Part shown: one piece after another, positions 8,254 to 57,778 of the stretch
How the letters are laid out: every line of letters starts with the position of its first letter
Position numbering within the stretch: the stretch's first letter is position 1
Source of the DNA: Thermoanaerobaculia bacterium
Lineage (GTDB): Bacteria > Acidobacteriota > Thermoanaerobaculia > Multivoradales > Multivoraceae
Direction of reading: 5' to 3'
DNA: 64,000 nt
NCBI GenBank assembly: GCA_965200575.1
Contig: OZ241363.1
Span: 1,722,398 to 1,786,397, forward strand
Notes under the pieces: generated by a model
Database searches by the model: none
The model's input: only the letters and a program-made list of their open reading frames with translations
Told to the model about the DNA's origin: nothing
Position numbers and translations under genes: made by a program

Positions 8254-9189
8254 ATGGATGCGGCCAGGAACTCCGGCAGCGCTGGCGAAGACCAGGGCCC
8301 CGGCGCGGCGTCCTGGGCGCCCCGCGCGATCGCCGGCGGTGCACTGATGGGCCTGGCGAACCTGGTGCCCGGGATCAGCGGCGGCACGATGCTGCTCGCC
8401 GTGGGCATCTACCCGCAGTTCATCGAGGCGGTCGCCACCACCACCCGACTGCAGTTCCGTCGCCGATCCCTGCTGCTTCTCGGCGTCGTGGCGACCTCCG
8501 GCGGACTCGCCATCCTGCTGCTCGCGGGAGTCCTGCGTGACCTGGTCGTTCATCAGCGCTGGATCATGTACAGCGCCTTCATCGGCCTCACCCTGGGCGG
8601 AGCCCCCCTGGTGCTGCGCCTGGCGCGGCCTGCCGGGCGCGGGTTCTGGACCGGCGCCGCGTGCGGCTTCGTGGCCATGGCCGCGCTCGCCGCGCTCCAG
8701 GGCGGGCCCGCCGGCGAGGGCGACGGGGGCAGCGGTCCGCTCCTGCTCGCCCTGGCCGGCGCGGCCGGCGCCGCGGCGATGATCCTGCCCGGCCTGAGCG
8801 GCGGTTACCTTCTGCTCGTCCTCGGCCAGTACGTACCCATCCTCGGCGCTCTCGACCGGCTGCTCGATGGGCTGCGAAGCCAGGACTTGGGCGCCGCTGT
8901 CGACGCCGCGGCCGTGCTGCTGCCGGTGGCGGCCGGCATCGCGGTGGGCGCGACGGCGATCAGCAACGCGGTCCGCTTCGCCCTGCGGCGCTTCCGGGCG
9001 CAGACCTTCGGCGTGCTGATGGGCCTCCTCCTGGGCGCAGTGGTCGGTCTGTGGCCGTTCGAGGCCGAGGTGCGGCTGCTGCAGGCCGCCGCGTCCTGCG
9101 GGCTCGTCGCCGCCGGGTTCGCCCTGACCTGGGCCGTCAGCCGACTCGGCCGGGACACGGGCGAAACCGGCATCTCCCGAGAAGCGTGA
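8254..9189 (+). CDS. DUF368 family membrane protein (putative polyprenyl-phosphate transporter, PopT-like)
   Basis: Two internal repeats, [17 protein letters not shown] and [17 protein letters not shown], characteristic of DUF368, with multiple TM segments. The start may be downstream. Confidence 0.7.
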
Positions 9190-9409: not shown

Positions 9410-10762
9410 ATGAACTCGCCCAGCTTGACCTGCCGCCCCTCCCAGCCCTTCGGCCCCGCCTCCGTCGCCCTGGCAGCGGTGCTGCTGCTCGGCGCCTTCC
9501 AGGTCGCGGCACCCGCGGCCACGCAGGACGGGCGCACCGTGATTCACGCCGGCGCGCTGGTGGACGTCGTGGCCGGCGACGTGCTCGGACCGCACACCAT
9601 CCTGGTCGAGGGTCCTTCGATCACGGGCGTGGCGGAGGGCCTCGCCGACCCCGCCGACGGGGACACGCTGATCGACCTGTCCGGGCACACCGTGCTGCCC
9701 GGCCTGATGGACATGCACGTCCACCTGACCTCGGAGCAGAGCGGCGCGGCCTCGTACCTCGAGCGATTCCAGCAGACCTCGGCCGACATGACGATCAAGG
9801 CGCTCATCTACGCCGAGCGCACGCTGCTCGCCGGCTTCACCACGGTGCGCGATCTCGGCGGCGACACGAGCGCCATCCTGGCCGTGCGAAACGCGATCAA
9901 CCGCGGCGAGATGCCGGGACCGAGGATCTTCGCCGCCACCGCCTCGCTTGCCACCACCGGCGGCCACGGCGACCGGACGAACGGCATGAGGCCCGACCTC
10001 CAGGGCGACCCGGGCCCCAGGGAGGGCATCGTGAACGGCATCGAGGACGCGCGCAAGGCCGTGCGCCAGCGCTACAAGGAGGGCGCCGACCTGATCAAGA
10101 TCACCGCCACGGGCGGCGTGCTGAGCCTCGCCAGGAGCGGCCAGAATCCCCAGTTCACAGAGGAGGAGATCCGGGCGATCGTCGCGACCGCGGACGACTA
10201 CGGCTTCATGGTTGCCGCCCACGCCCACGGCGCCGAGGGCATGAAGCGGGCCATCCGCGCCGGCGTGACGACCATCGAACACGGCACGTACATGGACGAG
10301 GAGGCGTTCGAGCTGATGAAGGAGCACGGCACCTTCTTCGTGCCGACCATCTCGGCCGGGAACTTCGTGGCCGAGAAGGCCGCCGTGCCGGGGTACTTCC
10401 CCGAGATCATCCGCCCCAAGGCCGCCGCCATCGGACCCGTGATCCAGGACACCTTCGCCCGGGCGTGGCGCGCCGGCGTGCCGATCGCGTTCGGCACGGA
10501 CTGCGGCGTCTGCCCGCACGGCAGCAACGCGGAGGAGTTCCTGTTCATGGTCGAGGGCGGGATGCCGCCGATGAGCGCCATCCAGTCGGCCACGGTCGTC
10601 ACGGCAGAGCTGCTCGGCATCGAGGACGAGACCGGCTCGGTCACGACCGGCAAGGCGGCGGACCTGATCGCGGTCGAAGGCGATCCGATCGCCGACGTGA
10701 CGCGGCTGCAGGACGTGAGCTTCGTCATGCGGGCCGGCCGCGTCCACAAGTCCGCCGGCTAG
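9410..10762 (+). CDS. amidohydrolase family protein (imidazolonepropionase/Xaa-Pro dipeptidase-like), secreted
   Basis: ATG preceded by AGGAAGGA. Signal peptide, then metal-binding MDMHVHL, and the later HAHG and FGTDCGV motifs of the amidohydrolase superfamily. Confidence 0.8.
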
Positions 10763-34294: not shown

Positions 34295-35752
34295 CTACGG
34301 TTCCTGGACGAGGTCGAGGGTGCGGCGCAGGAGCTCGACCGCCTCCGGCCCCGAGATCGCCTCCTCCGGGCGACACGCGGCGTCGTCGTCCAGCAGCCCG
34401 CAACGCGACGCCGCAGCGCAGGAAGCGTCCGTGTCGCCAGCAGCCGGCTCGGTGCCCTCGGCAAGGCAGGAAGCGCCGGCCCCACCCAACCCGGCCAGGT
34501 TGCCGACCCGCAGCATCGCATCCAGCGCCTCGCCTCGACGCAGGTAGCTGCCGGGCGCGAAGCGCCGCACGGCGCCATCCATCGGCATCATCACGCCAAG
34601 GTTCAGCAGGCGGGCGATCTCTCGACGGTGCGGGTGCCCGGCAATGTCGGACACGATCACGGTGCTGCCGCCCTGTCCTGTCCGCAGACCCGGAACGAGC
34701 CACGCCAACAGGGCCGCGAAGTCTCCGCGCAGGAGCCACCGCGCATCAAGGTGCTCGGCCACGTCCTCGGGCAGCAGGCGGCCGCGCCAGGCGAAGCGGG
34801 CGGACGCCAGGCCGGCGGCAATCTCCGCGTCGTCCGGATGCTGCTCCGCCAGGCGCCGGTACAGCTCCAGACCCTCGCCGGCATCGCCGACCTCGACCAG
34901 GAGGTCCGCCTGCCGCCGGCGCAGGTCCAGCGACTCGTCGCCGGATTCGAGAAGGCGGACCGTGGCAGCAAGCTCGGCTTCGGCATCGCCTCGGCCCCGG
35001 GCCACGCGGCGCTCCAGTTCGAGCACGACCGGCGCGTCCGACGACCATGCCCGCAGCAGGTCGAGATCGCGCGCGGCATCGGCGATGGCGCCGGCCAGAA
35101 GGCTGGCCTCGAGGCGCTCGCCCAGCGCCGCAACGGCACGCGACTCCAGGTCTCTCGCCTGCCTCGCGGCCCTCTCGTCGCGGTCGGCAATGCCCCGCCA
35201 GGCCCCCCAGGCCCCGGCCAGGTCGCCGATCAGCTCCAGAGAGCGCGCATGCACGAGCCAGCCCGCCACGTACTCCGGATACTCCGACAGCGTCGACTTC
35301 AGGAGGTCGACCACCCGGTTCGGTTCACCCGCGGCCAGGTGGGTCTGCGCGAGAAGCACCGTGGCCGGCAGCAGGTCCCCAACGGCGCCAGCCAGATCCT
35401 CGGCAGCCGCCCGGGCGCCGAGCACGTCGCCTGCCTCGAGCCTTGCCCAGGCCGCCGCGAGCGCCGCCCGGCTGTCGGCGGAGACGGCCCCCTCGTATCC
35501 CAGGAGCGGCTCGCGAAGGAACGCCCGGACGGCCGGATCCAGGGTCGGGAGCGAGGCGCCCGGCGTCGGCGGGCTCGCCGTGGCCGTACAGCCGGCCACG
35601 CTCAGGACTGCCGCCAGCAGCAGGAGACCGTCCCGGAGGGTGCGGGCCGGACGGAAGTCACGGCGCGCGCCGTGCTGGCCAATGCAGGACGCCGACCTGC
35701 TCACGAGCCCGTCTCGAAGGGACCACCACCGTACGCGGCGCGTCCCGGGCAC
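34295..35752 (-). CDS. hypothetical TPR-like lipoprotein
   Basis: Possible lipobox (LLLLAAVLSVAGC), Ala/Leu-rich helical repeats. The start is probably downstream of 35752, which overlaps miaA. Confidence 0.4.
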   Translation of the reverse strand: MPGTRRVRWWSLRDGLVSRSASCIGQHGARRDFRPARTLRDGLLLLAAVLSVAGCTATASPPTPGASLPTLDPAVRAFLREPLLGYEGAVSADSRAALAAAWARLEAGDVLGARAAAEDLAGAVGDLLPATVLLAQTHLAAGEPNRVVDLLKSTLSEYPEYVAGWLVHARSLELIGDLAGAWGAWRGIADRDERAARQARDLESRAVAALGERLEASLLAGAIADAARDLDLLRAWSSDAPVVLELERRVARGRGDAEAELAATVRLLESGDESLDLRRRQADLLVEVGDAGEGLELYRRLAEQHPDDAEIAAGLASARFAWRGRLLPEDVAEHLDARWLLRGDFAALLAWLVPGLRTGQGGSTVIVSDIAGHPHRREIARLLNLGVMMPMDGAVRRFAPGSYLRRGEALDAMLRVGNLAGLGGAGASCLAEGTEPAAGDTDASCAAASRCGLLDDDAACRPEEAISGPEAVELLRRTLDLVQEP

Positions 35753-36758
35753 CCCGCCGCTTCGACCGCTGGTGCCGCAGTCTCCGGGAGGCCGGAACCG
35801 GTCACGGCGGCGACGATCCGTCGCCGGGCCAGGCCCAGGGCGCCAGCGTCCGACGCATCAACCCAGAAGACCCCCGTCTCCCGACGAAACCACGTCTCCT
35901 GTCGCCTGGCGTACCGGCGCGTCGCCCGCACTGTCTGTTCCAAGGCCTGCTCCAGCGTCAACTGTCCGTCGAGATGCGCGCCAAGCTGTCGGTACCCGAG
36001 TGCCTGAAGCGCCGGCAACTCCTGGCGAGACCAACCGCCCCGGGCGCTCGCGTACCGTCTGAGGCGCTCGACCTCGGCCAGCCAGCCGCTCTCGAGCATC
36101 CGCACGGCCCGGGCCTCGATGGCATCGTACAGAACGGCCCTCGGAAGGGTCAATCCGACCCGAAGGACGGGGCGGTCGAGCCTGCGCTCCACTCCCCGGC
36201 GCTGCCACTTCGACAGCGGCGTGCCGGTGGCCCGCACCACCTCCAGCGCCCGCAGAACCCGCTGCGTGTCGCCGGGGGCCAGCACTTCCGCAGTGTCCGG
36301 GTCGCACTCCCGAAGCTCCGCCACGAGGGCAGGAAGCCCGCTCGCCTCAAGCTCGGACCGCAGCCGCGCCTGCAGCTCTGGTGGAATCCGGGGCACCGGG
36401 GCCAGGCCCTCGAACAGGGAACGCAGGTAGAAGCCGCTGCCACCCACCACGATCGGCTGACGGCGCCGCGTCTCGATACCCTCGATGGCCACGGCCGCAC
36501 GGCGGGCGAACTCCCCCGCCGAGAACCGCTGGTGCGGCGCCAGGACGTCGATCAGGTGATGCCGCACGCGGCAGCGGGCTCGCGGCCCGGGCTTCGCCGT
36601 GCCGATACTCACCTCCCGGCACGCCTGAAGCGCGTCCGCCCCCACCAGTTCGGCAGGACGCCCGCTCCCGGCCAGGTCCGCAGCCAGAGCCATCGCGAAC
36701 CTGCTCTTGCCGGTCGCCGTGGCGCCCAGAACGACGATGACGGACCGGGCCGAGGACA
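35701..36758 (-). CDS. miaA: tRNA dimethylallyltransferase
   Basis: VIVVLGATATGKS P-loop, HHLIDVLAPHQRFSAGEF, and a long match to MiaA. The GTG start is approximate. Confidence 0.85.
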
Positions 36759-36801
36759 CGGGTGGACGGTAGCAGGCTGTCGGACTGCCAGCGACGTGGG
36801 G

Positions 36802-36912
36802 GCTGCGGCCAGAGCCCGGCGTCCGCGACGCCCCTGGCCCCAGTGGGTAGCCACCCGCGAGGCGTGGAAGGAGAAGCTGCGGCCAGAGCCCGGCGTCCGC
36901 GACGCCCCTGGC
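36802..36912. repeat. two perfect copies of a 37-bp direct repeat (gctgcggccagagcccggcgtccgcgacgcccctggc) separated by a 37-bp spacer
   Basis: Copies at 36802-36838 and 36876-36912 are identical. Each contains the inner palindrome ggcgtc-cgc-gacgcc. Intergenic, upstream of miaA. Confidence 0.8.
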
Positions 36913-36962
36913 GGCGGCAAGGCGCCTCGCCCAGGGGCCCCGACCTGGCGGTGTCGACGCAG

Positions 36963-37007
36963 TTTGCTTGCCTGCCTCTTGCTTCCTGCATCTTGCTTGC
37001 CTGCACC
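36963..37007. repeat. pyrimidine-rich tandem motif (cttgcttgcctgc / cttgcttcctgc repeats)
   Basis: ttgcttgcctgcctcttgcttcctgcatcttgcttgcctgcacctc is unusually low in GC and repetitive for this genome. Confidence 0.5.
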
Positions 37008-37071
37008 TCACCAGCGCTTCGCCAACGGCCCGGCATCAACCCTGAGGTCCAGGAGGACCGCAGGCACACGG

Positions 37072-39414
37072 TCACCGAACCAGTCGCCTTCGCGGCCAGT
37101 CCGCGACCTCGACCAGCGGGCGACGCCTCCCGGCGCCGTCGGCCCGGAAGCGGACCTCGATGCGGCCGTGGAGGTCCGTCCGCAGCACCCTGGTCCCACG
37201 CCGTTCGATTCTCGCCACCACCTCCGGCGCCGGATGCCCGTACGGGTTCTGTCGGCCAGCCGACACGAGCGCCACAGCCGGGGCGACGGCGCGCAGCAGG
37301 GCCGGACCGGTCGACGTCCGGCTGCCATGGTGGCCGACCTTCAGAATCTCGCTGCCCAGGTCCGCTCCCGCTCGCGGTGCGCCGTCCAGAAGCTCCCGTT
37401 CGCCGGCGACATCCAGGTCGCCGGTCAGCAGCACACAGGCATCGGCGGCAGCGGAGGCGACTACCGGCGGAAGCGTGTTGCGCGCTGGGGGCTTGCCGGA
37501 CGAGCGACAATGGTCAAGGCAGGCCCGGACCACCAGGGATGCGGAGTTGCCGCCAGGGCGCGGGCCGGCGGGAGGGTGCAGCACCTGGAGGTTCCAGTCT
37601 CCGACGCGTTCCGCGTCGCCCTGACCAACCGTGCGCACCCGGCTTCCAAGCCGCTCGGCAAGGGCGAGCCCGCAGCCGTCACGAAGCTCCACCGACGCCG
37701 CCCACAGCCTGTCGATCCGCAGGTACTGCGAGAGCTCCAGCAGCCCGCGGCAGTGGTCCGCGTCGCCGTGGGAGAGGACCGCGAGGTCGACCCGCAGCAC
37801 GCCCTCCGCGGCGAGCGTCTGCAGCAGCGTCGCCTCGGCGAAGTTACCCTGCCGGAACCCGCCGCCGTCGACCAGGATCACGGGGCCCTTGTCCTGGCTG
37901 CGGAGGAGAATCGCCTCGCCCTGCCCCACGTCCAGCATCGTCAGCGTCGGCTCGTCATGCGGCGGCTCGGGCGTGCAGACGAGCACCAGGGCCAGCGCGA
38001 GGCAGCATCGCAGACGGCCGGACAGCGCCGCCGCCAGCCAGACCGCCAGCACCAGGGCCGGGGCGGCGCCCACGCTCACCGGCAGGGCCAGCCACGCCCC
38101 CGGCGGCAACTCCGCCAGGAGCCCGAAGGGCACGCTGACCAGGTCGAGCAGCCGCTCGAGCAACCTGGCGACCGGGCCGGCGCCGACGGTCAGCAAGGGC
38201 ACCTCGCACATCGCCGCCAGGGCAACCCATGCCAGCGAGAACCCCAGGGCCGCAGCGGTCAAGGGCACGAAGATCAGGTTGAAGAACGGCGACAGCGGAG
38301 TCAGCAAACCGATCTCCGCCGCCGTGACCGGGATCGTCGCAAGCTGCGCCGCGACGGTCGCCGCAAGAGCTACCGCGACCGGCCCGGGCCGACGTTCTGC
38401 CCTCGAGGTCGAGCCGGCGGTCGGGCCCGAGGGCGTGCCGCTCGGCCGGTCGTGCCCGAACCAGCAGCCAAGGAGCCGAGGCGCGAGAACCAGGATGCCG
38501 GCCGTGGCCAGGAAGCTGAGCTGGAAGCCCAGGTCTTCCGACGCCGCCGGGTCGAACAGGAGGATCGAGATCAGGGCCGCGCAGAGCGCGTTCAGGGCCT
38601 GCGGCGGCCGTTCCAGCATGAGCGCCAGGACGACCAGCAGGGCCATCATGCCGGCGCGCAGCAGCGACGGACGCGGACCGACCAGCACGCCGTAGACGAG
38701 CAGAACCGCAACCGCTCCCGTCCACGCCATCCGCGGCGACCAGGCGCCCATGATCCACCAGAGCCCTCCCAACAGCAGCCCGACGTGAAGGCCCGACACC
38801 GCCAGCAGGTGGGAGAGACCGGCTCGGCGAAGCCCCGTGCGCCACTCGGGCGGAAGCCGCCTGGCATCGCCGAACACGAGCGCCCGGGCCAGCAGGGCCC
38901 CTCGGCCATCGGCCCGGTCAAGCGGCAGCAGCAGCCGCTGCCGCACCGCCGCGGCGGTACGCAGGAAGGCGCCCGGGGCATTGCCCAGCGGGGTCATCAG
39001 CAGCCTGCTCTTCACCTCCAGACCCCAATCGCCCGGCCTTGAGACGTGCAGGTTCAGGTAGCCGGGTCGCCGAACGAAGTAACCGCGCACCACGACCCGA
39101 CGCTCGACGGGAGGTTCGCCCTCGCCGCGCAGACGCAGCCACGCCCGCTTTGGCCCGTCGACCTCCCGGCCCACCTGCTCGACCCGGAGCACTCGCACTC
39201 TCGCCGCCCAGGCGCCATCGCGTCGCTCCCAGGACGCGGCGCCGAGCGCGGGGACGACGACCTCGGCCGTCACCGGGCGCTTCGGCACGAACGCGTTGCG
39301 CGCCGGTTCGTTCGCCTCGCCCGCGAACGACGCCAGCAGAAAGGCGGCCGCAACGGGAAACAGCGGAGTTCGCCGCCAGGCGGCGGTCCAGTCGGAATCA
39401 GCCATTGCCGACAA
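37072..39414 (-). CDS. comEC: DNA internalization competence protein ComEC/Rec2 (with MBL domain)
   Basis: 780 aa. Competence-domain TM core (LSHLLAVSGLHVGLL), C-terminal MBL domain (LVDGGG...HGDADH...LKVGHHGS). Confidence 0.85.
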   Translation of the reverse strand: MSAMADSDWTAAWRRTPLFPVAAAFLLASFAGEANEPARNAFVPKRPVTAEVVVPALGAASWERRDGAWAARVRVLRVEQVGREVDGPKRAWLRLRGEGEPPVERRVVVRGYFVRRPGYLNLHVSRPGDWGLEVKSRLLMTPLGNAPGAFLRTAAAVRQRLLLPLDRADGRGALLARALVFGDARRLPPEWRTGLRRAGLSHLLAVSGLHVGLLLGGLWWIMGAWSPRMAWTGAVAVLLVYGVLVGPRPSLLRAGMMALLVVLALMLERPPQALNALCAALISILLFDPAASEDLGFQLSFLATAGILVLAPRLLGCWFGHDRPSGTPSGPTAGSTSRAERRPGPVAVALAATVAAQLATIPVTAAEIGLLTPLSPFFNLIFVPLTAAALGFSLAWVALAAMCEVPLLTVGAGPVARLLERLLDLVSVPFGLLAELPPGAWLALPVSVGAAPALVLAVWLAAALSGRLRCCLALALVLVCTPEPPHDEPTLTMLDVGQGEAILLRSQDKGPVILVDGGGFRQGNFAEATLLQTLAAEGVLRVDLAVLSHGDADHCRGLLELSQYLRIDRLWAASVELRDGCGLALAERLGSRVRTVGQGDAERVGDWNLQVLHPPAGPRPGGNSASLVVRACLDHCRSSGKPPARNTLPPVVASAAADACVLLTGDLDVAGERELLDGAPRAGADLGSEILKVGHHGSRTSTGPALLRAVAPAVALVSAGRQNPYGHPAPEVVARIERRGTRVLRTDLHGRIEVRFRADGAGRRRPLVEVADWPRRRLVR

Positions 39415-39555
39415 GGACGCAAACCGGCGGCAAGATCCGGATCCCGATCGGAAAACGGGTTGCGCCAGCCCACAGGCGGTGCGAAGCTAGCCGCGCCCGA
39501 TGCCGGCGGGGAGCGGTTCTTGATCCCGGACCGGTTCCGGGCTTCCCCTTGCGCC

Positions 39556-42500
39556 ATGGCATCGGACTTCGTCCACCTCCACCTCCACTCCGAGTACTCG
39601 CTGCTCGACGGCGGCAACCGGATGGAGTCCCTGGTGGACCGCATAGCCGAGCTCGGCATGGACGCCGTGGCGCTGACGGACCACGGCAACCTGTTCGGCG
39701 CCGTCGCCTTCTACCGGGCCTGCCAGAAGCGCGACATCAAGCCGATCCTGGGCATCGAGGCGTACGTCGCGCCCGACATTCACACCGAGGTGTCCGACCG
39801 CCGTCTGAAGGAAACCCACGGGGTCGCCGACGGCGGCTTCCACCTCGTGCTGCTCGCTCGCAACCAGGCCGGCTGGCGCAACCTGGTCCGGCTGTCCACC
39901 GACAGCTACATCGAGGGCTTCTACTACAGGCCGCGCATGGACAAGGGGACGATCGCGCAGTGGAACGAAGGCCTGATCGCGATCAACGGCCACATGGGGT
40001 CCTCGCTCGCCTACCACCTTCAAAAGGACCTCGAGGACAGCAAGGCCGGCCACTGGGAGCGGGCAAGGGCGGAGGCGCTCTGGCACCTCGAGACCTTTCC
40101 CGCCGACGAGGACGGCGAGCCCTGCTTCTACCTGGAGCTGCAGCGCCACGAAACCGACGGGCAGGACGAGCTGAACGAGCAGATCCTCCGCCTCGCGGAC
40201 GAACTCGACCTGCCCGCGGTATGCGACAACGACGCACACTTCCTCACCGCCGAGGACTGGGACAGCCACGACACGCTGATCTGCGTGTCCACCGGCAAGT
40301 CGAAGAAGGACGAGGATCGCCTCCACTACCCGAAGGACCTGTACGTCCGCAGCCCGGAGCAGATGGCCGAGCTGTTCGGGGACCCCCGCACTGAAGACGC
40401 GCTGCGCAACACCCGCCGCATCGCCGACCGCTGCAACGTCGAACTCGACTTCAGCGCCAACCATGCGCCGCTGGTGCGGGTGGAACGCGGCGAGAAGCCG
40501 CCGCTGCCGGAGGCAGGGAGCCCGGCGGACCGGGCCGAGTGGTTTCAGCGCTTCTGCGCCAGCTACCGAATCGAGCCCCTGGCCGACCAGCCCGGAGACG
40601 AGGAGCTCGCGGCGCTTCACGCCGACTGCGACGACGCGCTGCGAGAACTCGCCCAGGCCGGCCTCGTCTGGCGCTACGGCAGCGGCATCGAGGAAGCCCA
40701 CCGCCACCGCCTCGACCACGAGCTCTCCGTGGTGGCCGGAAAGCGGATCAGCGCCTACTTCCTGATCGTGTGGGACTTCGTGAACGAAGCACGCAAGCGC
40801 GGCATCCCGGCAACGGCCCGCGGTTCGGGAGTCGGCACCATGGTCGGCTACCTGCTCGGCCTCTCCCACGCCTGCCCGGTGCGCTACGGGCTCCTGTTCG
40901 AGCGCTTCACCGACCCCGACCGCGCCGAGTACCCCGACATCGACATCGACCTGTGCCAGGACGGACGCGCCGAGATCCTGGACTACGTGCGCGAGAAGTA
41001 CGGCTACGTCGCCCAGATCATCACCTTCGGCACCATGAAGGCTCGTGCGGCCATCCGGGACGTCGGCCGCGTCCTGGAACTGCCTCTGGCCCAGGTGGAC
41101 CGCATCTCGAAGCTGATCGGCCCCGAGCTCGGCGTGACCATCGACCAGGCGATGGAGCGCGAGAAGGAGCTGCGCGAGCTCCACGAGAACGACGAACAGG
41201 TCCGGGCGGTCATCGACACCGCTCGTCAGCTGGAGGGCATCACCCGGCACAGCGGCGTCCACGCCGCCGGGCTGGTGATCGCCACGGAGCCGCTTCAGAA
41301 CCTGTGCCCCCTCGCCACCAACCGCAGCCAGGGCTCGAAGGACGCCCTGATCACCCAGTGGGACGGCCCCACGGTGGAAGCCATGGGACTTCTGAAGATG
41401 GACTTCCTGGGCCTCACCACCCTCTCGGTCATCGAGCGCTGCCGTCAGCTGGTGCAAGAGACGCTGCCCCCGGAAGCCATGGCGGCGGCCGTTCCGGGCA
41501 GCGAGGGCCGCGATCCCCTGGACCTCGACCACATCGACCTCGCCGACCGCCGAGTGCTCGACGTCTTCGCCAGCGCCGACACCGCCGGGACCTTCCAGTT
41601 CGAGTCGGAAGGGATGCGCAACCTGCTGCTGCAGATGAAGCCCGACCGCCTCGAGGACCTGGTCGCCGCCAATGCCCTGTTCCGGCCCGGGCCCATGGAC
41701 CTGATTCCCGACTACTGCGACCGCAAGCACGGACGCCAGGAAGTCCCTCGCAACCACGAGATCGTCGACCGGCACACCGCCGAGACCCACGGCATCATGG
41801 TCTTCCAGGAACAGGTGATGCAGATCGTGCACGAGCTCGGCGACGTGCCGCTGCGCGAGGCCTACACGCTCATCAAGGCGATCAGCAAGAAGAACCGGGC
41901 GACGATCAACGCCGCGAAGCAGCGTTTCCTCGACGGCGCCCGGGAGAAGGGGCTGTCCACCAGGGAGGCGACGACCCTGTTTGCCCAGGTGGAGAAGTTC
42001 GCCGGCTACGGCTTCAACAAGTCGCACTCGGTCGGCTACTCCCTGCTCGCCTACCAGACCGCCTACCTGAAGACCTGGTTCCCCGTGCAGTTCATGGCGG
42101 CGATCCTCACCTACGCCGCCGACAGCAAGGACAAGCTCGTTCACTACATCGACGAGTGCGCCCGGGTGAAGCTCCCCGACGGCGGCGTCGGCATCACGGT
42201 CGGGGCGCCCGACATCGACCGCTCCGGCGTGCGCTTCCACGTCGTCTTCGAGCCGGGCGAGGAGAAGGCCAGCGCCACCGGGCACATCCGCTTCGGCCTG
42301 TCGGCGGTCAAGGGAGTCGGCGAGAAGGCGGTGCGGGCGATTCTCGAGGTGCGCGAGGCGGGAGGACCGTTCCGCAGCCTGTGGGACTTCTGCCGCCGCG
42401 TCCCGCTCCAGGCGGTCAACCGCAGCACCATCGAGGCGCTGATCAAGTCCGGCGCCTTCGACGGCCTACACGGCAAGGACCAGCGGGCGGCGATGCTCGA

Positions 42501-43338
42501 GGCCCTCGAACCGGCGATCAAGGCCGGGCAGCGGGCAGCGGCCGACCGCGAGAGCGGCCAGGGCAACCTGTTCGGCGGCGGCGCCCTCGAAACCGCCGCG
42601 GCCGACGACGACCGACCGTTGCCGGCGACGCCGCCGTGGAGCACCGCCGAGCTCCTGGACCAGGAGAAGGAGACGCTCGGCTTCTTCGCTTCGAGCCACC
42701 CGCTCGACGATCACCGCCGGACCCTGGGGGAGTTCGGCAACGTGACCGTGAAGCGCCTGAAGACGCTGCCGGCCGACACCGAGGTCGTGCTCGGCGCCCT
42801 GGTCGGGTCGGTCGCCGACCGGCGTACTCGGAGGGGGCGCAACGCCGGGCAGAAGATGGCTGTCGTGCAAGTCGAGGACCGTTCCGACCGCATCGAGGCC
42901 GTGCTGTTCGCCGAGGCCTGCGCGAAGTACGAGGCCCATCTGGAGCGCGGGGCCGTGCTGTTCTTCAGCGGTCGCGTGGACAGGCGACGCGAGGAGCCAA
43001 GCCTGGTGGTCAACCGGGTGGCCACGGTCGAGGAGGCCCGGACGACGCTCTCACGCCGCCTGCGCATCCATCTCGACCTGCGGCCTTCAGCCGGCAGCGA
43101 TCTCCACGACGTGCTGGCGCGGTTGCGTGACCTGCTCGACCAACGACGCAGCCGCAGCCGCAATGGGGGCGTGGAGGTCGAGTTCGAGCTGGAACTGGAG
43201 GACCGCCTGGTTCGCACCGACGCGAACGGCAGCCGCGCGCCGATCAAGGCCAGCCTGGCAGAGGAGATCGACAACCTGCTCGGCGACCGAGGTCACTGCC
43301 GCTACCTGGGCCCGCCGCCCCCCGCCGCGGGTCCATGA
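39556..43338 (+). CDS. dnaE: DNA polymerase III alpha subunit
   Basis: MASDFVHLHLHSEYSLLDGG PHP domain start; 1260 aa, collinear with DnaE. Confidence 0.95.
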   Translation: MASDFVHLHLHSEYSLLDGGNRMESLVDRIAELGMDAVALTDHGNLFGAVAFYRACQKRDIKPILGIEAYVAPDIHTEVSDRRLKETHGVADGGFHLVLLARNQAGWRNLVRLSTDSYIEGFYYRPRMDKGTIAQWNEGLIAINGHMGSSLAYHLQKDLEDSKAGHWERARAEALWHLETFPADEDGEPCFYLELQRHETDGQDELNEQILRLADELDLPAVCDNDAHFLTAEDWDSHDTLICVSTGKSKKDEDRLHYPKDLYVRSPEQMAELFGDPRTEDALRNTRRIADRCNVELDFSANHAPLVRVERGEKPPLPEAGSPADRAEWFQRFCASYRIEPLADQPGDEELAALHADCDDALRELAQAGLVWRYGSGIEEAHRHRLDHELSVVAGKRISAYFLIVWDFVNEARKRGIPATARGSGVGTMVGYLLGLSHACPVRYGLLFERFTDPDRAEYPDIDIDLCQDGRAEILDYVREKYGYVAQIITFGTMKARAAIRDVGRVLELPLAQVDRISKLIGPELGVTIDQAMEREKELRELHENDEQVRAVIDTARQLEGITRHSGVHAAGLVIATEPLQNLCPLATNRSQGSKDALITQWDGPTVEAMGLLKMDFLGLTTLSVIERCRQLVQETLPPEAMAAAVPGSEGRDPLDLDHIDLADRRVLDVFASADTAGTFQFESEGMRNLLLQMKPDRLEDLVAANALFRPGPMDLIPDYCDRKHGRQEVPRNHEIVDRHTAETHGIMVFQEQVMQIVHELGDVPLREAYTLIKAISKKNRATINAAKQRFLDGAREKGLSTREATTLFAQVEKFAGYGFNKSHSVGYSLLAYQTAYLKTWFPVQFMAAILTYAADSKDKLVHYIDECARVKLPDGGVGITVGAPDIDRSGVRFHVVFEPGEEKASATGHIRFGLSAVKGVGEKAVRAILEVREAGGPFRSLWDFCRRVPLQAVNRSTIEALIKSGAFDGLHGKDQRAAMLEALEPAIKAGQRAAADRESGQGNLFGGGALETAAADDDRPLPATPPWSTAELLDQEKETLGFFASSHPLDDHRRTLGEFGNVTVKRLKTLPADTEVVLGALVGSVADRRTRRGRNAGQKMAVVQVEDRSDRIEAVLFAEACAKYEAHLERGAVLFFSGRVDRRREEPSLVVNRVATVEEARTTLSRRLRIHLDLRPSAGSDLHDVLARLRDLLDQRRSRSRNGGVEVEFELELEDRLVRTDANGSRAPIKASLAEEIDNLLGDRGHCRYLGPPPPAAGP

Positions 43339-48523: not shown

Positions 48524-48953
48524 CGTTCGTCTCCACCCCATCATGCCCGAAGCATGGACTCGCATGGACGACCGACGACGCCGGACGCTTCGCTCAAGCC
48601 GCGTTGGGCCCGCGCGCTTGTTCGCCTGCAGTCAGCTCGCCAGCTGACCCATCCAGCCGCAGCGACCCGAATCCCGGGTGGTCGCCGGACGGCCAGCGGC
48701 TCGTCTTCACCCCCAGCCGATTCGTCACGCCCGGATACACCTGATGAACCTCAACGGTTGTCGTGTCTGCGCCGAGGCCAGGCCGGCCTCGCGGCGCCTC
48801 ATCCCGGCCAAACCCGAGCCGCCAGCGGCCGTGGCGCCCGCAGGCAAGCTCTCGGCTTCCGCGACTGCTATAGTCCGCCGCTGCCGGCGACCGGCCACGG
48901 CCGAGTCGAACCTCCCCAACTCCGACGACAAGGCATCGAGCCGGAGACAGCAC

Positions 48954-49466
48954 ATGAATCGATCCACTCCCCTGGCCTGCCTGCTCGCGACGGCCATGGC
49001 TTCGGCGCCCGCGGCCGCCGACCTCTCCGTCGGCGACACGGCGCCGGACTTCACCCTGCCCGCGACCGACGGAACCCGGGTCACGCTGTCTTCCTTCGCC
49101 GGGCAGAAGCAGGTAGTGCTCGCCTTCTTCCCGAAGGCCTTCACCGGCGGCTGAACGGCTCAGATGAAGGGATACCAGGCTGGTATCTCAGAGTTCACCG
49201 ACAGCGACTCCATCATCTTCGGCATCAGCGCCGACAAGCTGGAGGACAACAAGAGGTTCGCAGAGGAGCTGGAGCTCGACTTCCTGCTTCTGAGTGACGT
49301 GGACGCCACGGTGATCAACCAGTACGGCGGCACGATGGAGCGGTACGCGGGCATCGCGAAGCGCGTCACCTACGTGGTCGACCTTGACGGCAAGGTCTCG
49401 TATGTCGGCGTGGGCGCCGACGCAATGGACCCGGCCGGCGCCCAGGCCGCCTGTCAGGGCGAGTAG
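48954..49466 (+). CDS. Bcp-type peroxiredoxin, putative selenoprotein (in-frame UGA at the peroxidatic Cys position, codon 67 = 49152-49154)
   Basis: ORFs 48954-49154 and 49164-49466 are in the same frame, separated by a single TGA. The joined sequence ...[13 protein letters not shown][U]TAQMKGY...[26 protein letters not shown] aligns with E. coli Bcp ...VLVYFYPKAMTPG[C]TVQACGL...GISTDKPEKLSRFAEKELLNFTLLSD. Signal peptide present; SECIS-like hairpin downstream. Confidence 0.7.
49155..49195 (+). promoter_or_regulatory. putative bacterial SECIS hairpin
   Basis: The stem gatacc/ggtatc (49171-76/49182-87) with GG-containing apical loop aggct begins 16 nt after the UGA. This is within the spacing expected of bacterial SECIS elements. 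Confidence 0.5.
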
Positions 49467-53989: not shown

Positions 53990-55546
53990 ATGAACGGCGC
54001 ACAGTCACTGCTTCGTACCGCGGCCTCGGCCGGCGTGGAGATCTGCTTCGCCAACCCGGGCACGTCCGAGATGCACCTGGTGGCGGCGCTGGACGAGATC
54101 CCCGGTGTCCGCAGCGTCCTCGCCCAGTTCGAGGGCGTGGCGACCGGCGCCGCGGACGGCTACGCCCGGATGGCCGGCAAGCCCGCGCTGACCCTCGTCC
54201 ACCTCGGCCCCGGCTTCGCGAACGGGATCGCCAACCTGCACAACGCCCGTCGGGCGCGTTCGCCGGTGATCAACGTGATCGGGCACCACCCGACCTGGCA
54301 CCGCAACTACGATCCGCCGCTCAACAGCGACGTGGAGAGCCTGGCGCGAGGCGTGTCCGACTGGCAGCGCACCGCCGGCTCGGCGCAGCACCTGTCGCGG
54401 GACATGGCCGAAGCCATCTCGGCTGCGCGCCGCCACCCCGGCCAGATCGCGACGCTCGTCGTGCCCACCGACTGCCAGTGGGACGAGGCCTTCGGCCCGA
54501 TCGTCGCCCCGCCTCCGGTGCCCGGCGCGCGGGTCGACGACGACGCCGTCGAGCGAGCACGCGAAGCAGTGCTGCGCGGCAAGCGCACGATGCTGCTGCT
54601 CGGCGGTTCCGCGCTCCAGGAAACGGGCCAGCGATCAGCCGCCGCCACAAGCGCCGCGACCGGTTGCCGGTTGAACGCCGAGACCTTCCCGACCCGCATG
54701 GAGCGCGGACCCCACCTGCCGCCCCTCGTCCGCGTGCCCTACTTCCCCGAACAGGCCGCCGAGTTCTTCGCCGGCCTCGACACGGTCGTCCTCGCCGGGG
54801 CGCTCGACCCGGTCGCCTTCTTCGGCTACCAGGGCGGACCGAGCCGGCTGGTTCCGGACGATGTGGATGTCGTCGTCCTGAGCCACCCGACGGAGCACGC
54901 CAGTGCCGCCCTCGGAGACCTGGCCTCCGCACTCGGCGCGACCGAGGCGCCGCCGGCGCGGAACGTCCAACGGCCGCCGGCGCCGGACGGACCCATCGGC
55001 GCCCGTGTGGCCGCCCAGGCGGTCGCCGCGACCCTGCCGGAGCATGCGATCGTCGTGGACGAGGGCATCACGGTCGGCGGCGGCTGCTATCCCGCGACGG
55101 CCGGCGCCCCCGCGCACAGCTGGCTGCTGCAGAACGGCGGCGCAATCGGCATGGGCCTGCCTGCCGCCCTTGGCGCCGCCATCGCCTGCCCGGACCGCAA
55201 GGTCCTGAACCTCGAGGGAGACGGCAGCGGCCTGTACACCATCCAGGCGCTGTGGAGCCAGGTGCGCGAAAGCGCCGACGTGGTGAACCTCGTCTTCGCC
55301 AACGACGCCTACCGCATTCTCCAGGTCGAGCTGCGCAGGGCCGGCGTCGAGGAGTTCGGCCCTCAGGCGATCAACCTGACCGACCTCACGGGCCCCCGCG
55401 TGGAGTGGCTCGACCTCGCCCGAGGCTTCGGCATGCCGGCAGTCCAGGTGCAGACCGGCGAGGAGCTCACCGCCGCGCTGGCCCGAGGCTTCGCCGAGCC
55501 CGGCCCGTACCTGATCGAGGCGCTGGTGCAGGACGCGCCCGGCTAG
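53990..55546 (+). CDS. thiamine-pyrophosphate-dependent enzyme, acetolactate synthase large-subunit-like
   Basis: N-terminal TPP-Pyr domain (AGVEICFANPGTSEMHLVAAL), C-terminal TPP-binding GDG...N motif (NLEGDGSGLYTIQALWS). Confidence 0.8.
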   Translation: MNGAQSLLRTAASAGVEICFANPGTSEMHLVAALDEIPGVRSVLAQFEGVATGAADGYARMAGKPALTLVHLGPGFANGIANLHNARRARSPVINVIGHHPTWHRNYDPPLNSDVESLARGVSDWQRTAGSAQHLSRDMAEAISAARRHPGQIATLVVPTDCQWDEAFGPIVAPPPVPGARVDDDAVERAREAVLRGKRTMLLLGGSALQETGQRSAAATSAATGCRLNAETFPTRMERGPHLPPLVRVPYFPEQAAEFFAGLDTVVLAGALDPVAFFGYQGGPSRLVPDDVDVVVLSHPTEHASAALGDLASALGATEAPPARNVQRPPAPDGPIGARVAAQAVAATLPEHAIVVDEGITVGGGCYPATAGAPAHSWLLQNGGAIGMGLPAALGAAIACPDRKVLNLEGDGSGLYTIQALWSQVRESADVVNLVFANDAYRILQVELRRAGVEEFGPQAINLTDLTGPRVEWLDLARGFGMPAVQVQTGEELTAALARGFAEPGPYLIEALVQDAPG

Positions 55547-55688
55547 CGCTGCCGGCGGCTCGCCGATTCATGTTCGCAAGGCGCAACCGGCCTCGGCTGC
55601 GGCCCGGCAACCTTGCCAGTGCCGCCGGCGAGCCCTTCACAGCCCGCTGCCTGCCGGAACCCGGCGCCAACCCGAGAAACGGATCGCC

Positions 55689-56726
55689 TTGAAGTACTCC
55701 GTCACGCTGCTGCCCGGCGACGGCATCGGCCCCGAGGTCGCCAAGGCGATGGTCCGTGCCGTCGACTTCGTCACCGGCGGCCGTATCGAGTGGGAGCCCG
55801 TGGTGGCGGGCAGCACCGCCGTGGATCAGGGGCTCTCGCCGCTGCCCGACGAGGCCATCGACTCCATCAGGCGCAACAGGATCGCGATCAAGGGGCCGCT
55901 GCAGACCCCGGTGGGAGGCGGCTGGCGCAGCGTGAACGTCCTGCTCCGCCAGTCCCTGGAGCTGTTCGCGTGCGTCCGGCCGGTCCGCTCCATGCCCGGC
56001 GCCACCCTTGCCCGCTACCAGGACGTCGACCAGATCATCATCCGAGAGAACACCGAGGGCCTGTACAGCGGCCGCGAGCACGAGGTGGTCGACGGCGTGG
56101 TCGAGGCGCTCCGCATCGTCACCCGCGATGCATCCCGGCGCATCATGCAGTTCGCGTTCGAGTACGCCCGCAGCCACGGACGCAAGAAGCTGACCATCGT
56201 CCACAAGGCGTCCATCACGCCCCTGTCGGACAACCTGTTCCTGGACTGCGCCCGCGAGTGCGCGCAGAGCTACCCGTTCTTCGAGGTGGACTACCTGCCG
56301 CTCGACAACCTGGCCCTGGAACTGGCCACGGACCCATCCCGCTTCGACATGCTGGTCATGGGCAACCTGGACGGCGACCTGATCAGCGACCTCTGCGCCG
56401 GTCTGGTCGGCGGCCTGGGCGTCGTTCCGGGGGCCAACTACGGCCACGGATGCGCCGTCTTCGAGGCCGTTCACGGCACCGCGCCCGACATCGCCGGCCG
56501 CGACCTGGCCAACCCGCTCGCCCTCATCCTGTCGGCCGAGCTGATGCTCCGCTACGTTGGCGAAGCGGCAGCTGCCGACCACCTGCGAGCCGGCGTCGAG
56601 CGGCTGCTGGTGAACGGCACAAGCCTCACCCGCGACCTCGGCGGCAGCGCCAACACGTCCGAACTCACCGACGCCCTGCTGGTCGAGCTCGATGTGGTCG
56701 CCGACGAGCGGGAGAGCGCCCGGTGA
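55689..56726 (+). CDS. isocitrate/isopropylmalate dehydrogenase family protein (paralog 1)
   Basis: LLPGDGIGPEV...IRENTEGLYSG...NLDGDLISDLCAGLVGGLG. TTG start. Confidence 0.85.
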   Translation: MKYSVTLLPGDGIGPEVAKAMVRAVDFVTGGRIEWEPVVAGSTAVDQGLSPLPDEAIDSIRRNRIAIKGPLQTPVGGGWRSVNVLLRQSLELFACVRPVRSMPGATLARYQDVDQIIIRENTEGLYSGREHEVVDGVVEALRIVTRDASRRIMQFAFEYARSHGRKKLTIVHKASITPLSDNLFLDCARECAQSYPFFEVDYLPLDNLALELATDPSRFDMLVMGNLDGDLISDLCAGLVGGLGVVPGANYGHGCAVFEAVHGTAPDIAGRDLANPLALILSAELMLRYVGEAAAADHLRAGVERLLVNGTSLTRDLGGSANTSELTDALLVELDVVADERESAR

Positions 56727-57778
56727 CGCGCCCGCGGCCGAGGGTCGCCCTGATCGTCGGCGCGATCGGCGTCGGCGCCGAGACCGCACCTCCGGTCCTC
56801 CAGATCCTCGAATCGGCGGGCGCCGACCTCGACTTCGTCCGCGTGGACGTGCCGACTGCCGTGCGGCGCGACACACAAGCCGTGCTCCGCGAGGCCGTGG
56901 ACCTGGTCACGGACTGCAAGGTGGCGCTGAAGACGCGCCTGATCGGGCCCGACCGCGACGCCGTGCGAGTCGGGCCCGGGCCGCGCAACCCGAACGTGGC
57001 GCTCCGCCAGATGCTCGGCCTCTGGGCCAGCGTGCGGCCCGTGCGCACCCTGCCGGGTTTGCGCACCCGCTACGAAGACCTCGACGTGCTCCTCATCCGG
57101 GAGATCACGGAGAGCGTGTACCGGGGCATCGAGCACGAGATCGTCGACGGCGTGGTGGAGAGCATGAAGGTGGTCAGCCGGGCGGCCTGCCTCCGCATCG
57201 CCGACTACGCCTTCCGCACGGCCAGACGTCACGGACGGAAGAAGGTCACTGCCATCCACAAGGCGAACATCATGAAACAGACCGACGGCCTGTTTCTCGA
57301 CACCTTCCGCGCCGTCGCCGCCGAGCATCGCGACATCGAAGCCGACGACTGCATCGTGGACGCCGCCTGCATGCGCCTGGTGCTGAATCCCTGGGGCTTC
57401 GACGTGATGCTGATGGACAACCTCTACGGCGACATTCTCAGCAACCTCGGCGCCGGCCTCGCCGGCGGCATCTCGACCGGCCACGCGATCAATGTCGGCG
57501 ACGACTGCCACGTGTTCGAGGCGGTCCACGGCGACGCCCCGCACCTGATCGGCACCGGCCAGGCGAACCTGCTGCCGCTCCTGACCCCGGCCCTCGCCCT
57601 GCTCCGCCACTTCGACCTGTACGACGAGGCGGACCGCATAGACCAGGCCGTCACCGCAGTGCTCGAAGAGCGCCTGGCCCTGACCCCCGACCTCGGAGGC
57701 AACGCCTCCACGTGGCAGATGGCCCGAGCAATCATCGCCGCCATCGAGCAACCGGGCCTGTCGCGACCGAGGACCTGA
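56723..57778 (+). CDS. isocitrate/isopropylmalate dehydrogenase family protein (paralog 2), translationally coupled
   Basis: GTG start overlapping the upstream stop (GTGA). IREITESVYRG...NLYGDILSNLGAGLAGGIS. Confidence 0.8.
   Translation: MTRPRPRVALIVGAIGVGAETAPPVLQILESAGADLDFVRVDVPTAVRRDTQAVLREAVDLVTDCKVALKTRLIGPDRDAVRVGPGPRNPNVALRQMLGLWASVRPVRTLPGLRTRYEDLDVLLIREITESVYRGIEHEIVDGVVESMKVVSRAACLRIADYAFRTARRHGRKKVTAIHKANIMKQTDGLFLDTFRAVAAEHRDIEADDCIVDAACMRLVLNPWGFDVMLMDNLYGDILSNLGAGLAGGISTGHAINVGDDCHVFEAVHGDAPHLIGTGQANLLPLLTPALALLRHFDLYDEADRIDQAVTAVLEERLALTPDLGGNASTWQMARAIIAAIEQPGLSRPRT

Follow-up and report, generated by a model that had tools for sequence, protein, structure and literature searches.

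The window analyzed here is a stretch of 64,000 nucleotides from the genome of a Thermoanaerobaculia bacterium, and its gene content is of a housekeeping character: a divergent dnaE, comEC, miaA, a gene for a TPR protein, an isochorismatase gene, a DUF4159 gene, a BatA/MoxR operon and metabolic genes. The genes comEC and miaA both lie on the minus strand and are separated by a gap of 312 bp (36760-37071), which is the subject of this report. Read in the direction of the genes, the comEC stop codon is followed by a small hairpin, an array of 14-nt repeats, about 50 nt of further sequence, a 37-bp unit, a spacer, a second copy of the unit, 42 nt and finally the GTG start of miaA. In order of position, the features are the following.

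35701 to 36759, minus strand: miaA, tRNA dimethylallyltransferase (Pfam IPPT); the GTG start at 36759 fits the N-terminus of its relatives
36760 to 36775, minus strand: start-proximal motif CTGCTACCGTCCACCC, which abuts the miaA GTG (read directly against GGCTATCCTGCaCCC followed by ATG in the relatives)
36802 to 36838, minus strand: miaA-proximal copy of the 37-bp unit, in gene sense GCCAGGGGCGTCGCGGACGCCGGGCTCTGGCCGCAGC (sequence read, repeat finder)
36818 to 36832 in copy 1 and 36892 to 36906 in copy 2, no strand: 15-bp palindrome GGCGTC-CGC-GACGCC (pattern scan)
36839 to 36875, minus strand: unique 37-bp spacer between the copies, on the plus strand CCCAGTGGGTAGCCACCCGCGAGGCGTGGAAGGAGAA (sequence read)
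36876 to 36912, minus strand: miaA-distal copy of the 37-bp unit, 100% identical to the proximal one (sequence read, repeat finder)
36904 to 36938, no strand: imperfect inverted repeat with 15-nt arms, 80% complementary, and a 5-nt gap, overlapping the end of copy 2 (repeat finder)
36963 to 37004, minus strand: three tandem copies of a 14-nt repeat, purine-rich in gene sense, GCAGGCAAGCAAG / GCAGGAAGCAAG / GCAGGCAAGCAAA (TRF)
37046 to 37059, minus strand: small hairpin GGTCC-TCCT-GGACC, which begins 12 nt past the comEC stop in gene sense (sequence read, folding)
37072 to 39414, minus strand: comEC (Pfam Competence and Lactamase_B, metallo-beta-lactamase), with a C-terminus that is intact in comparison with its homologues

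The first-pass annotation of this DNA had named the two flanking genes and had placed the repeats downstream of comEC and upstream of miaA; the Pfam domains confirm both names, and the minus-strand orientation of both genes bears out the placement. The window ORFs that were scanned with Pfam include no cas, transposase, integrase or RAYT gene, and the window as a whole yielded no Rfam family at the gathering threshold.

Two observations on the flanking genes concern annotation. The database entry for MiaA (P0001) has 330 aa and is 100% identical over 94% of our 352-aa ORF, being 22 residues shorter. Its start, which from the lengths would be Met23, would omit the P-loop GATATGKS (region 36694-36759, minus strand), whereas the GTG at 36759 restores an N-terminus that matches the relatives (MSSPPWQVIAVLGPTATGKS); the shorter protein is thus likely to be a start-codon mis-annotation. 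Upstream of comEC, a minus-strand ORF at 39487-42285 is an antisense shadow of dnaE (39043-43338, plus strand). The plus frame carries the domains PHP, DNA_pol3_alpha, finger, HHH_6 and OB and has a GC3 of 0.90, as against 0.70 for the antisense ORF, whose translation nevertheless aligns at 62-64% identity to relatives. This calls for caution in ORF-based synteny analyses of high-GC genomes.

Two further observations were made at a distance from the gap. An AhpC/TSA peroxiredoxin ORF (48648-49466, plus strand) is split by an in-frame TGA at 49152-49154, and the parts before and after it align with positions 1-39 and 42-123 of the Pfam profile. In the context FFPKAFTGG[TGA]TAQM the TGA stands at the usual place of the peroxidatic Cys (FTxxC), and a stem of 9 bp with a 3-nt loop (GGGAUACCA/UGGUAUCUC; z = -1.1) begins 17 nt downstream of it, which makes this gene a candidate for a selenocysteine-containing peroxiredoxin with a bacterial SECIS element. 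At 55515-57778 (plus strand) two tandem paralogues of the isocitrate/isopropylmalate dehydrogenase family (Iso_dh) have in common a 95-nt stretch with 80% identity, 1055 bp apart, as detected in the repeat search.

The most conspicuous element of the gap is the pair of 37-mers (GCTGCGGCCAGAGCCCGGCGTCCGCGACGCCCCTGGC on the plus strand), which are 100% identical and, according to the repeat finder, in direct orientation. Their start-to-start distance is 74 bp, so that the intervening spacer measures exactly 37 bp, and their borders are sharp: the sequences flanking the two copies differ both at the left (g/a) and at the right (c/g), which sets the length of the repeat unit at exactly 37 bp. Even with up to three mismatches allowed, the 64-kb window holds only these two copies, and none of 100 dinucleotide shuffles holds any. 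The palindrome inside the unit has no exact match in the window apart from its two occurrences here. In all these respects the sequence reading and the repeat finder agree with the first-pass annotation, which had reported the coordinates and identity of two units only, a spacer equal in length to the repeat, and an internal palindrome in each copy, the last of these recovered by an exact pattern scan.

Read directly, the spacer resembles the flanks of neither copy, and nothing elsewhere in the 64-kb window matches it. Since spacer and flanks are unrelated, it is the 37-bp unit itself that was copied and not a larger block; a 74-bp tandem duplication is ruled out on the same grounds, and TRF does not call one. 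As for the hallmarks of mobile elements, the repeat finder detected no terminal inverted repeats of the MITE or IS kind around either the 312-bp gap or the repeat block, and the sequence flanking the two 37-mers contains no target-site duplication common to both.

The gap contains a second class of repeat. The GC-poor pyrimidine motif array that had been noted from position 36963 onwards proved to be a tandem repeat with a period of 14 and 2.9 copies (TRF, 36964-37005, 89% matches, score 70), with units that can be read directly at 36963-36975, 36978-36989 and 36992-37004. The lowest GC of the gap falls in this region (0.62 at 36950-37049, as against about 0.72-0.78 around it).

In order to place the gap in an evolutionary context, the same junction was compared among relatives identified through MiaA. 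All of these are metagenome-assembled genomes (MAGs) of uncultured Acidobacteriota, labelled Thermoanaerobaculia, 'Candidatus Multivorans' or 'Holophagales'; the best MiaA relative after the identical database copy has 72% identity, and in neighbor-joining trees the window branches deeply within the clade. The gene order dnaE, comEC, miaA, TPR gene and isochorismatase is kept in the relatives, and the length and content of the comEC-miaA junction vary widely. It amounts to 9-30 bp in loci L001-L009, L011-L013, L083-L085 and L087 and to roughly 40-70 bp in L086. L088 has 197 bp of unrelated sequence, L010, L081 and L082 have 206-254 bp filled with a dispersed family of REP-like hairpins, and in L014 the junction extends over about 5 kb and contains two ORFs, which encode a CarboxypepD_reg-domain protein and a hypothetical protein.

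Among the long gaps, those of L010, L081 and L082 show significant mutual similarity (Smith-Waterman z = 3.7-20). The gap of the window resembles none of these three (z of at most 2.1), and that of L088 resembles neither the window nor the three. A comparison with 20 related loci revealed no homologue of the gap sequence of the window; only about 15 nt before the start codon are common to the window and its relatives, CTGCTACCGTCCACCC-GTG in the former and GGCTATCCTGCaCCC-ATG in the latter. The long gaps therefore belong to unrelated sequence classes, from which it follows that the junction is hypervariable and has been filled independently several times within the clade. The 312-bp gap of the window is a lineage-private, non-coding insertion at this junction.

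The short conserved stretch deserves a remark of its own. Neither in the window nor in any of the related loci does the start-proximal motif of miaA contain a Shine-Dalgarno sequence. It includes a TAnnnT hexamer that ends 6 nt before the start codon and that would fit a -10 box, from which we would infer, and only infer, a leaderless mRNA.

The filling of the junction in three of the relatives is of a recognizable kind. A hairpin element of the form GGGTGC-GCGGGYC-YTCY-GRCCCGC is present in two copies in the gaps of L010, L081 and L082; the two are direct in L081 and inverted relative to each other in the other two loci. L010 has it at two further places within 13 kb, each directly behind a stop codon and one of them with three copies in tandem at a period of 29 bp (sites of the family: L010:5785-5910, 8757-8774 and 9509-9600; L081:3780-3960; L082:2185-2350). 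The element is thus found after stop codons of co-directional genes, in single, inverted or tandem copies, and two further small hairpins, TGCCGCCG-nnGG-CGGC and GCCGGCC-nnnn-GGCCGGC, often come after its core. By this distribution it is a dispersed REP-like family, for which Rfam holds no counterpart.

The relatives' family and the repeats of the window are alike in occupying the same comEC-miaA gap, usually with two copies and with an expansion of the gap (to 200-250 bp in the relatives), and in being GC-rich and hairpin-bearing. They differ in that no similarity between the sequences is detectable: the pattern of the relatives' element has no match in the window with up to three mismatches, and an nhmmer profile of the family retrieved nothing from the gap, even when the gap was searched alone. 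Furthermore, the relatives' element is dispersed and adopts inverted and tandem arrangements. Two likenesses that strike the eye, namely between the hairpin at 37046-37059 and that of the relatives' element, and between GCCGGGCTCTGGCCGC in the unit and GCCGGCCTCTGGCCGGC in L010, are not significant.

Further copies of the unit were sought well beyond the gap. Searches for exact matches came back empty for the full 37-mer in the genome contig collection, for the 31-nt core with a free loop in metagenome contigs and in viral ones, and for the left half of 22 nt in metagenome contigs. A blastn comparison with plasmids and phages returned a single chance match of 29 nt to a plasmid (E = 0.08) and nothing from phages. 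Within the window, the remaining 63.7 kb contain no copy of the 37-mer and no recognizable variant, and other strong hairpin clusters are likewise missing from the 64 kb. Under the assumption of a uniform spread over 3.87 Mb, the length of the contig with the identical MiaA, here taken for that of the genome, the probability of such an empty remainder would be about 0.007 for a family of 300 clusters, 0.19 for 100 and 0.61 for 30. A high-copy REP family (about 300 clusters or more) is thereby excluded, which leaves a family of low copy number or a copy of purely local origin as the readings that fit.

We also considered what the repeats could form as RNA. On the sense strand the unit folds as ((((((((((((...))))))....)))))) with -17.4 kcal/mol, a 12-pair interrupted stem-loop; as an imperfect palindrome it has an inner stem of 6 bp and an outer stem of 5 bp. 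The hairpin that the first-pass annotation had singled out therefore does exist as a palindrome, but with a folding energy that is ordinary for its composition (z = -0.05 and -0.28 against shuffles on the two strands). Nor do the 150-nt block of repeats and the gap as a whole fold better than shuffles (z from -1.0 to +1.6). Because the stem-loops are no stabler than shuffled sequence, nothing in these values shows selection for structure. On neither strand does the region 36600-37250 contain a site with a hairpin and U-tract of the terminator kind, and no sigma-70-like promoter was detected in the gap. A scan of 36400-37400 with Rfam 15 at E <= 10 returned two chance miRNA hits only and no CRISPR-DR family.

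Taken as a whole, the region has the look of ordinary intergenic repeat DNA, and of neither a CRISPR locus nor a conserved regulatory RNA. That the gap is a lineage-private non-coding insertion built of short local repeats is well supported; with moderate confidence we liken it most closely to a small REP-like doublet. The label derives from four properties: a bare palindromic unit has been copied, it has the size of a REP, it stands behind a stop codon, and relatives have REP-like elements in the same gap. A unit of 37 nt is of REP-like size, and the repeat is exact and non-random. The REP and BIME elements of Enterobacteria and Pseudomonas, to which the comparison refers, are likewise about 35-40 bp long, GC-rich, imperfectly palindromic and situated outside genes; they too are found between co-directional genes just past a stop codon, in clusters with short unrelated linkers, and may plausibly form RNA stem-loops within polycistronic transcripts.

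Several points stand against the REP-like label. REPs usually pair in inverted orientation, and in REPINs and BIMEs inverted copies alternate, whereas the copies of the window are direct. There is no dispersal of the unit over the 64 kb, whereas L010 displays three loci of its element in 13 kb, and the stem of the unit is no stabler than shuffles. Neither the conserved 5' tetranucleotide nor a RAYT transposase is demonstrable for the unit, with no RAYT or transposase gene among the scanned ORFs of the window; how a bare 37-bp unit came to be copied in the REP manner, as well as any role at the RNA level, is something that we infer. The suggestion of a REP-like element in the first-pass annotation hence stands as the best fit by analogy, given the REP-like hairpins in the same gap of relatives, and fails insofar as the 37-mer of the window is neither dispersed in the 64 kb nor similar to the relatives' family.

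Minisatellites of the MIRU/VNTR type in Mycobacterium offer a second comparison. They have in common with the gap that repeats of some tens of bp lie in a short co-directional gap at a locus that varies between lineages. They differ in that the repeats of the window are not head-to-tail, with only half of the 74-bp period being repeated, and in that the window lacks small overlapping ORFs that link stop and start codons; other loci of the kind are not known for the unit.

A rather unlikely but serious alternative to the REP-like doublet is neutral local turnover, in which the second copy would be due to a one-off event of repair, template switching or gene conversion and would belong to no family and have no function. 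This would agree with the failure to find other copies in the 64 kb or in the collections searched, with the unrelated fillers that the junction has taken up in other lineages, and with the adjacent 14-nt array of slippage type, which testifies to local repeat instability. What it accounts for less well is the precision of the event, since slippage or tandem duplication copies contiguous sequence and not a bare 37-bp unit to a position exactly 37 bp away amid unrelated flanks. What separates neutral turnover from the REP-like doublet is solely whether the genome contains more copies.

The two units could also be read as a putative pair of operators, bound by a dimeric protein that would regulate miaA or the transcript of comEC and miaA; we hold this to be improbable. 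The 6-3-6 palindromes are centered 74 bp apart, close by arithmetic to 7 x 10.5 bp and hence about 7 helical turns, so that they would face the same side of the DNA and cooperative binding or looping would be possible; they lie upstream of miaA, and the palindrome occurs exactly twice, with a chance expectation of 1.9 +/- 1.3 for the 1-mismatch pattern in the window. However, the identity spans all 37 bp, far beyond a 15-bp site, which points to recent copying and not to binding-site selection. Moreover, the sequence is absent from every relative, most of whose gaps (9-30 bp) would leave no room for it, no regulator gene is adjacent, and the gap has no sigma-70-like promoter.

A CRISPR-related origin, which the geometry of the locus calls to mind, appears very unlikely to us. 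It could take the form of an orphan mini-array, with a leader-like segment of lower GC, a repeat, a spacer and a repeat. Alternatively, it could be a 'neo-CRISPR' that arose by spacer insertion through Cas1-Cas2 at a non-CRISPR site: with a 37-bp ruler, one 37-bp spacer would have been inserted between comEC and miaA and a 37-bp target duplicated, a course of events that we find equally hard to credit. A target duplication of repeat length is the expected footprint of off-target Cas1-Cas2 integration, and repeat and spacer lengths of 37/37 lie within the range of type I-D, I-G and III arrays. In E. coli, the integration of spacers at off-target sites has been reported to give rise to new CRISPR-like loci (Nivala et al. 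2018, as cited in bioRxiv 10.1101/148544, PMC7054753 and PMC6698737), with circumstantial evidence for the same in two other species (as summarized in 10.1101/148544 and PMC7054753); Cas1-Cas2 of Pyrococcus furiosus also integrates at repeat-like non-CRISPR sites (PMC6698737).

The locus does agree with such loci in its perfect repeat, unique spacer and perfect repeat, in the duplication of the 37-bp unit alone, in an insert of typical spacer length (37 bp), and in having its lowest-GC segment to one side of the repeats, at a distance of about 50 bp. To this extent the CRISPR-like geometry proposed in the first-pass annotation was upheld. Against a CRISPR-related reading stand the following: there are two repeats as against three or more in a CRISPR array, no cas gene among the scanned ORFs of the 64-kb window, and no match to an Rfam CRISPR-DR family even at E <= 10. 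As described above, exact matches to the 37-mer, to the 31-nt core or to the left 22 nt are missing from the collections of genome, metagenome and viral contigs, and three overlapping 20-21-mers of the spacer are without an exact protospacer match in 2.9 million viral contigs; the blastn comparison with phages and plasmids gave no protospacer either. Read directly, the 37-mer has no A/T-containing handle, and the site is embedded in a string of housekeeping genes where relatives have ordinary repeat insertions. Should a CRISPR-related origin nonetheless be true, with a matching Cas1-Cas2 in the genome, the locus would be a rare natural example of the birth of a CRISPR locus in an uncultured acidobacterium.

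We are similarly doubtful about a dedicated cis-acting RNA, be it a tandem terminator or attenuator of comEC or a leader structure that controls miaA. The ability of the unit to fold as a 12-pair interrupted stem-loop on the sense strand and a pyrimidine tract, UUCUCCUUCC, after the first sense copy would speak for it. The findings against it are that no site with a hairpin and U-tract exists on either strand, that units, 150-nt block and gap fold no better than shuffles, and that Rfam provides no match. The sequence has no homologues in the relatives, and so covariation can lend no support; besides, the perfect identity of the two 37-mers is unlike an old functional RNA. The attenuator or terminator that had been among the options of the first-pass annotation is accordingly unsupported, by the missing U-tract terminator, by structure no better than shuffles, by Rfam and by the lack of conservation in relatives.

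The remaining candidates can be dismissed briefly. A tRNA or tmRNA attachment site was dropped, as the window has no tRNA genes, and so was a DNA-uptake-sequence role suggested by comEC, as no over-representation was found in the window. A hidden coding gene was dropped as well: the ORFs that cross the gap are of the overlapping, multi-frame kind that is usual in high-GC DNA, and the 74-nt spacing sets the two 37-mers in different reading frames. The idea of the gap as a decayed miaA 5' end or comEC 3' end (an att-like remnant) was rejected, the best local alignments not being significant; the strongest, which involves the miaA 5' end in reverse complement, was equalled by 4-8 of 300 shuffles before correction for eight tests.

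Returning to the REP-like doublet, we picture the following course of events. A GC-rich stem-loop unit of 37 bp would have been copied once, as a discrete unit and in direct orientation, to a position 74 bp away, and the gap would have acquired a second class of repeat in the 14-bp unit with its three tandem copies. If the gap is transcribed together with comEC and miaA, each 37-bp unit would be able to form an RNA stem-loop, whose most likely effect would be passive, either as a barrier at an RNA 3' end or through a partial uncoupling of comEC and miaA. Meanwhile miaA would retain its conserved start-proximal motif.

Altogether, the feature itself is probably of little consequence, as it consists of intergenic repeats private to a single uncultured lineage. 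The comEC-miaA junction, on the other hand, could serve as a convenient marker for strain and lineage typing, and it may prove useful for studying how short palindromic repeats colonize the junctions of compact operons.
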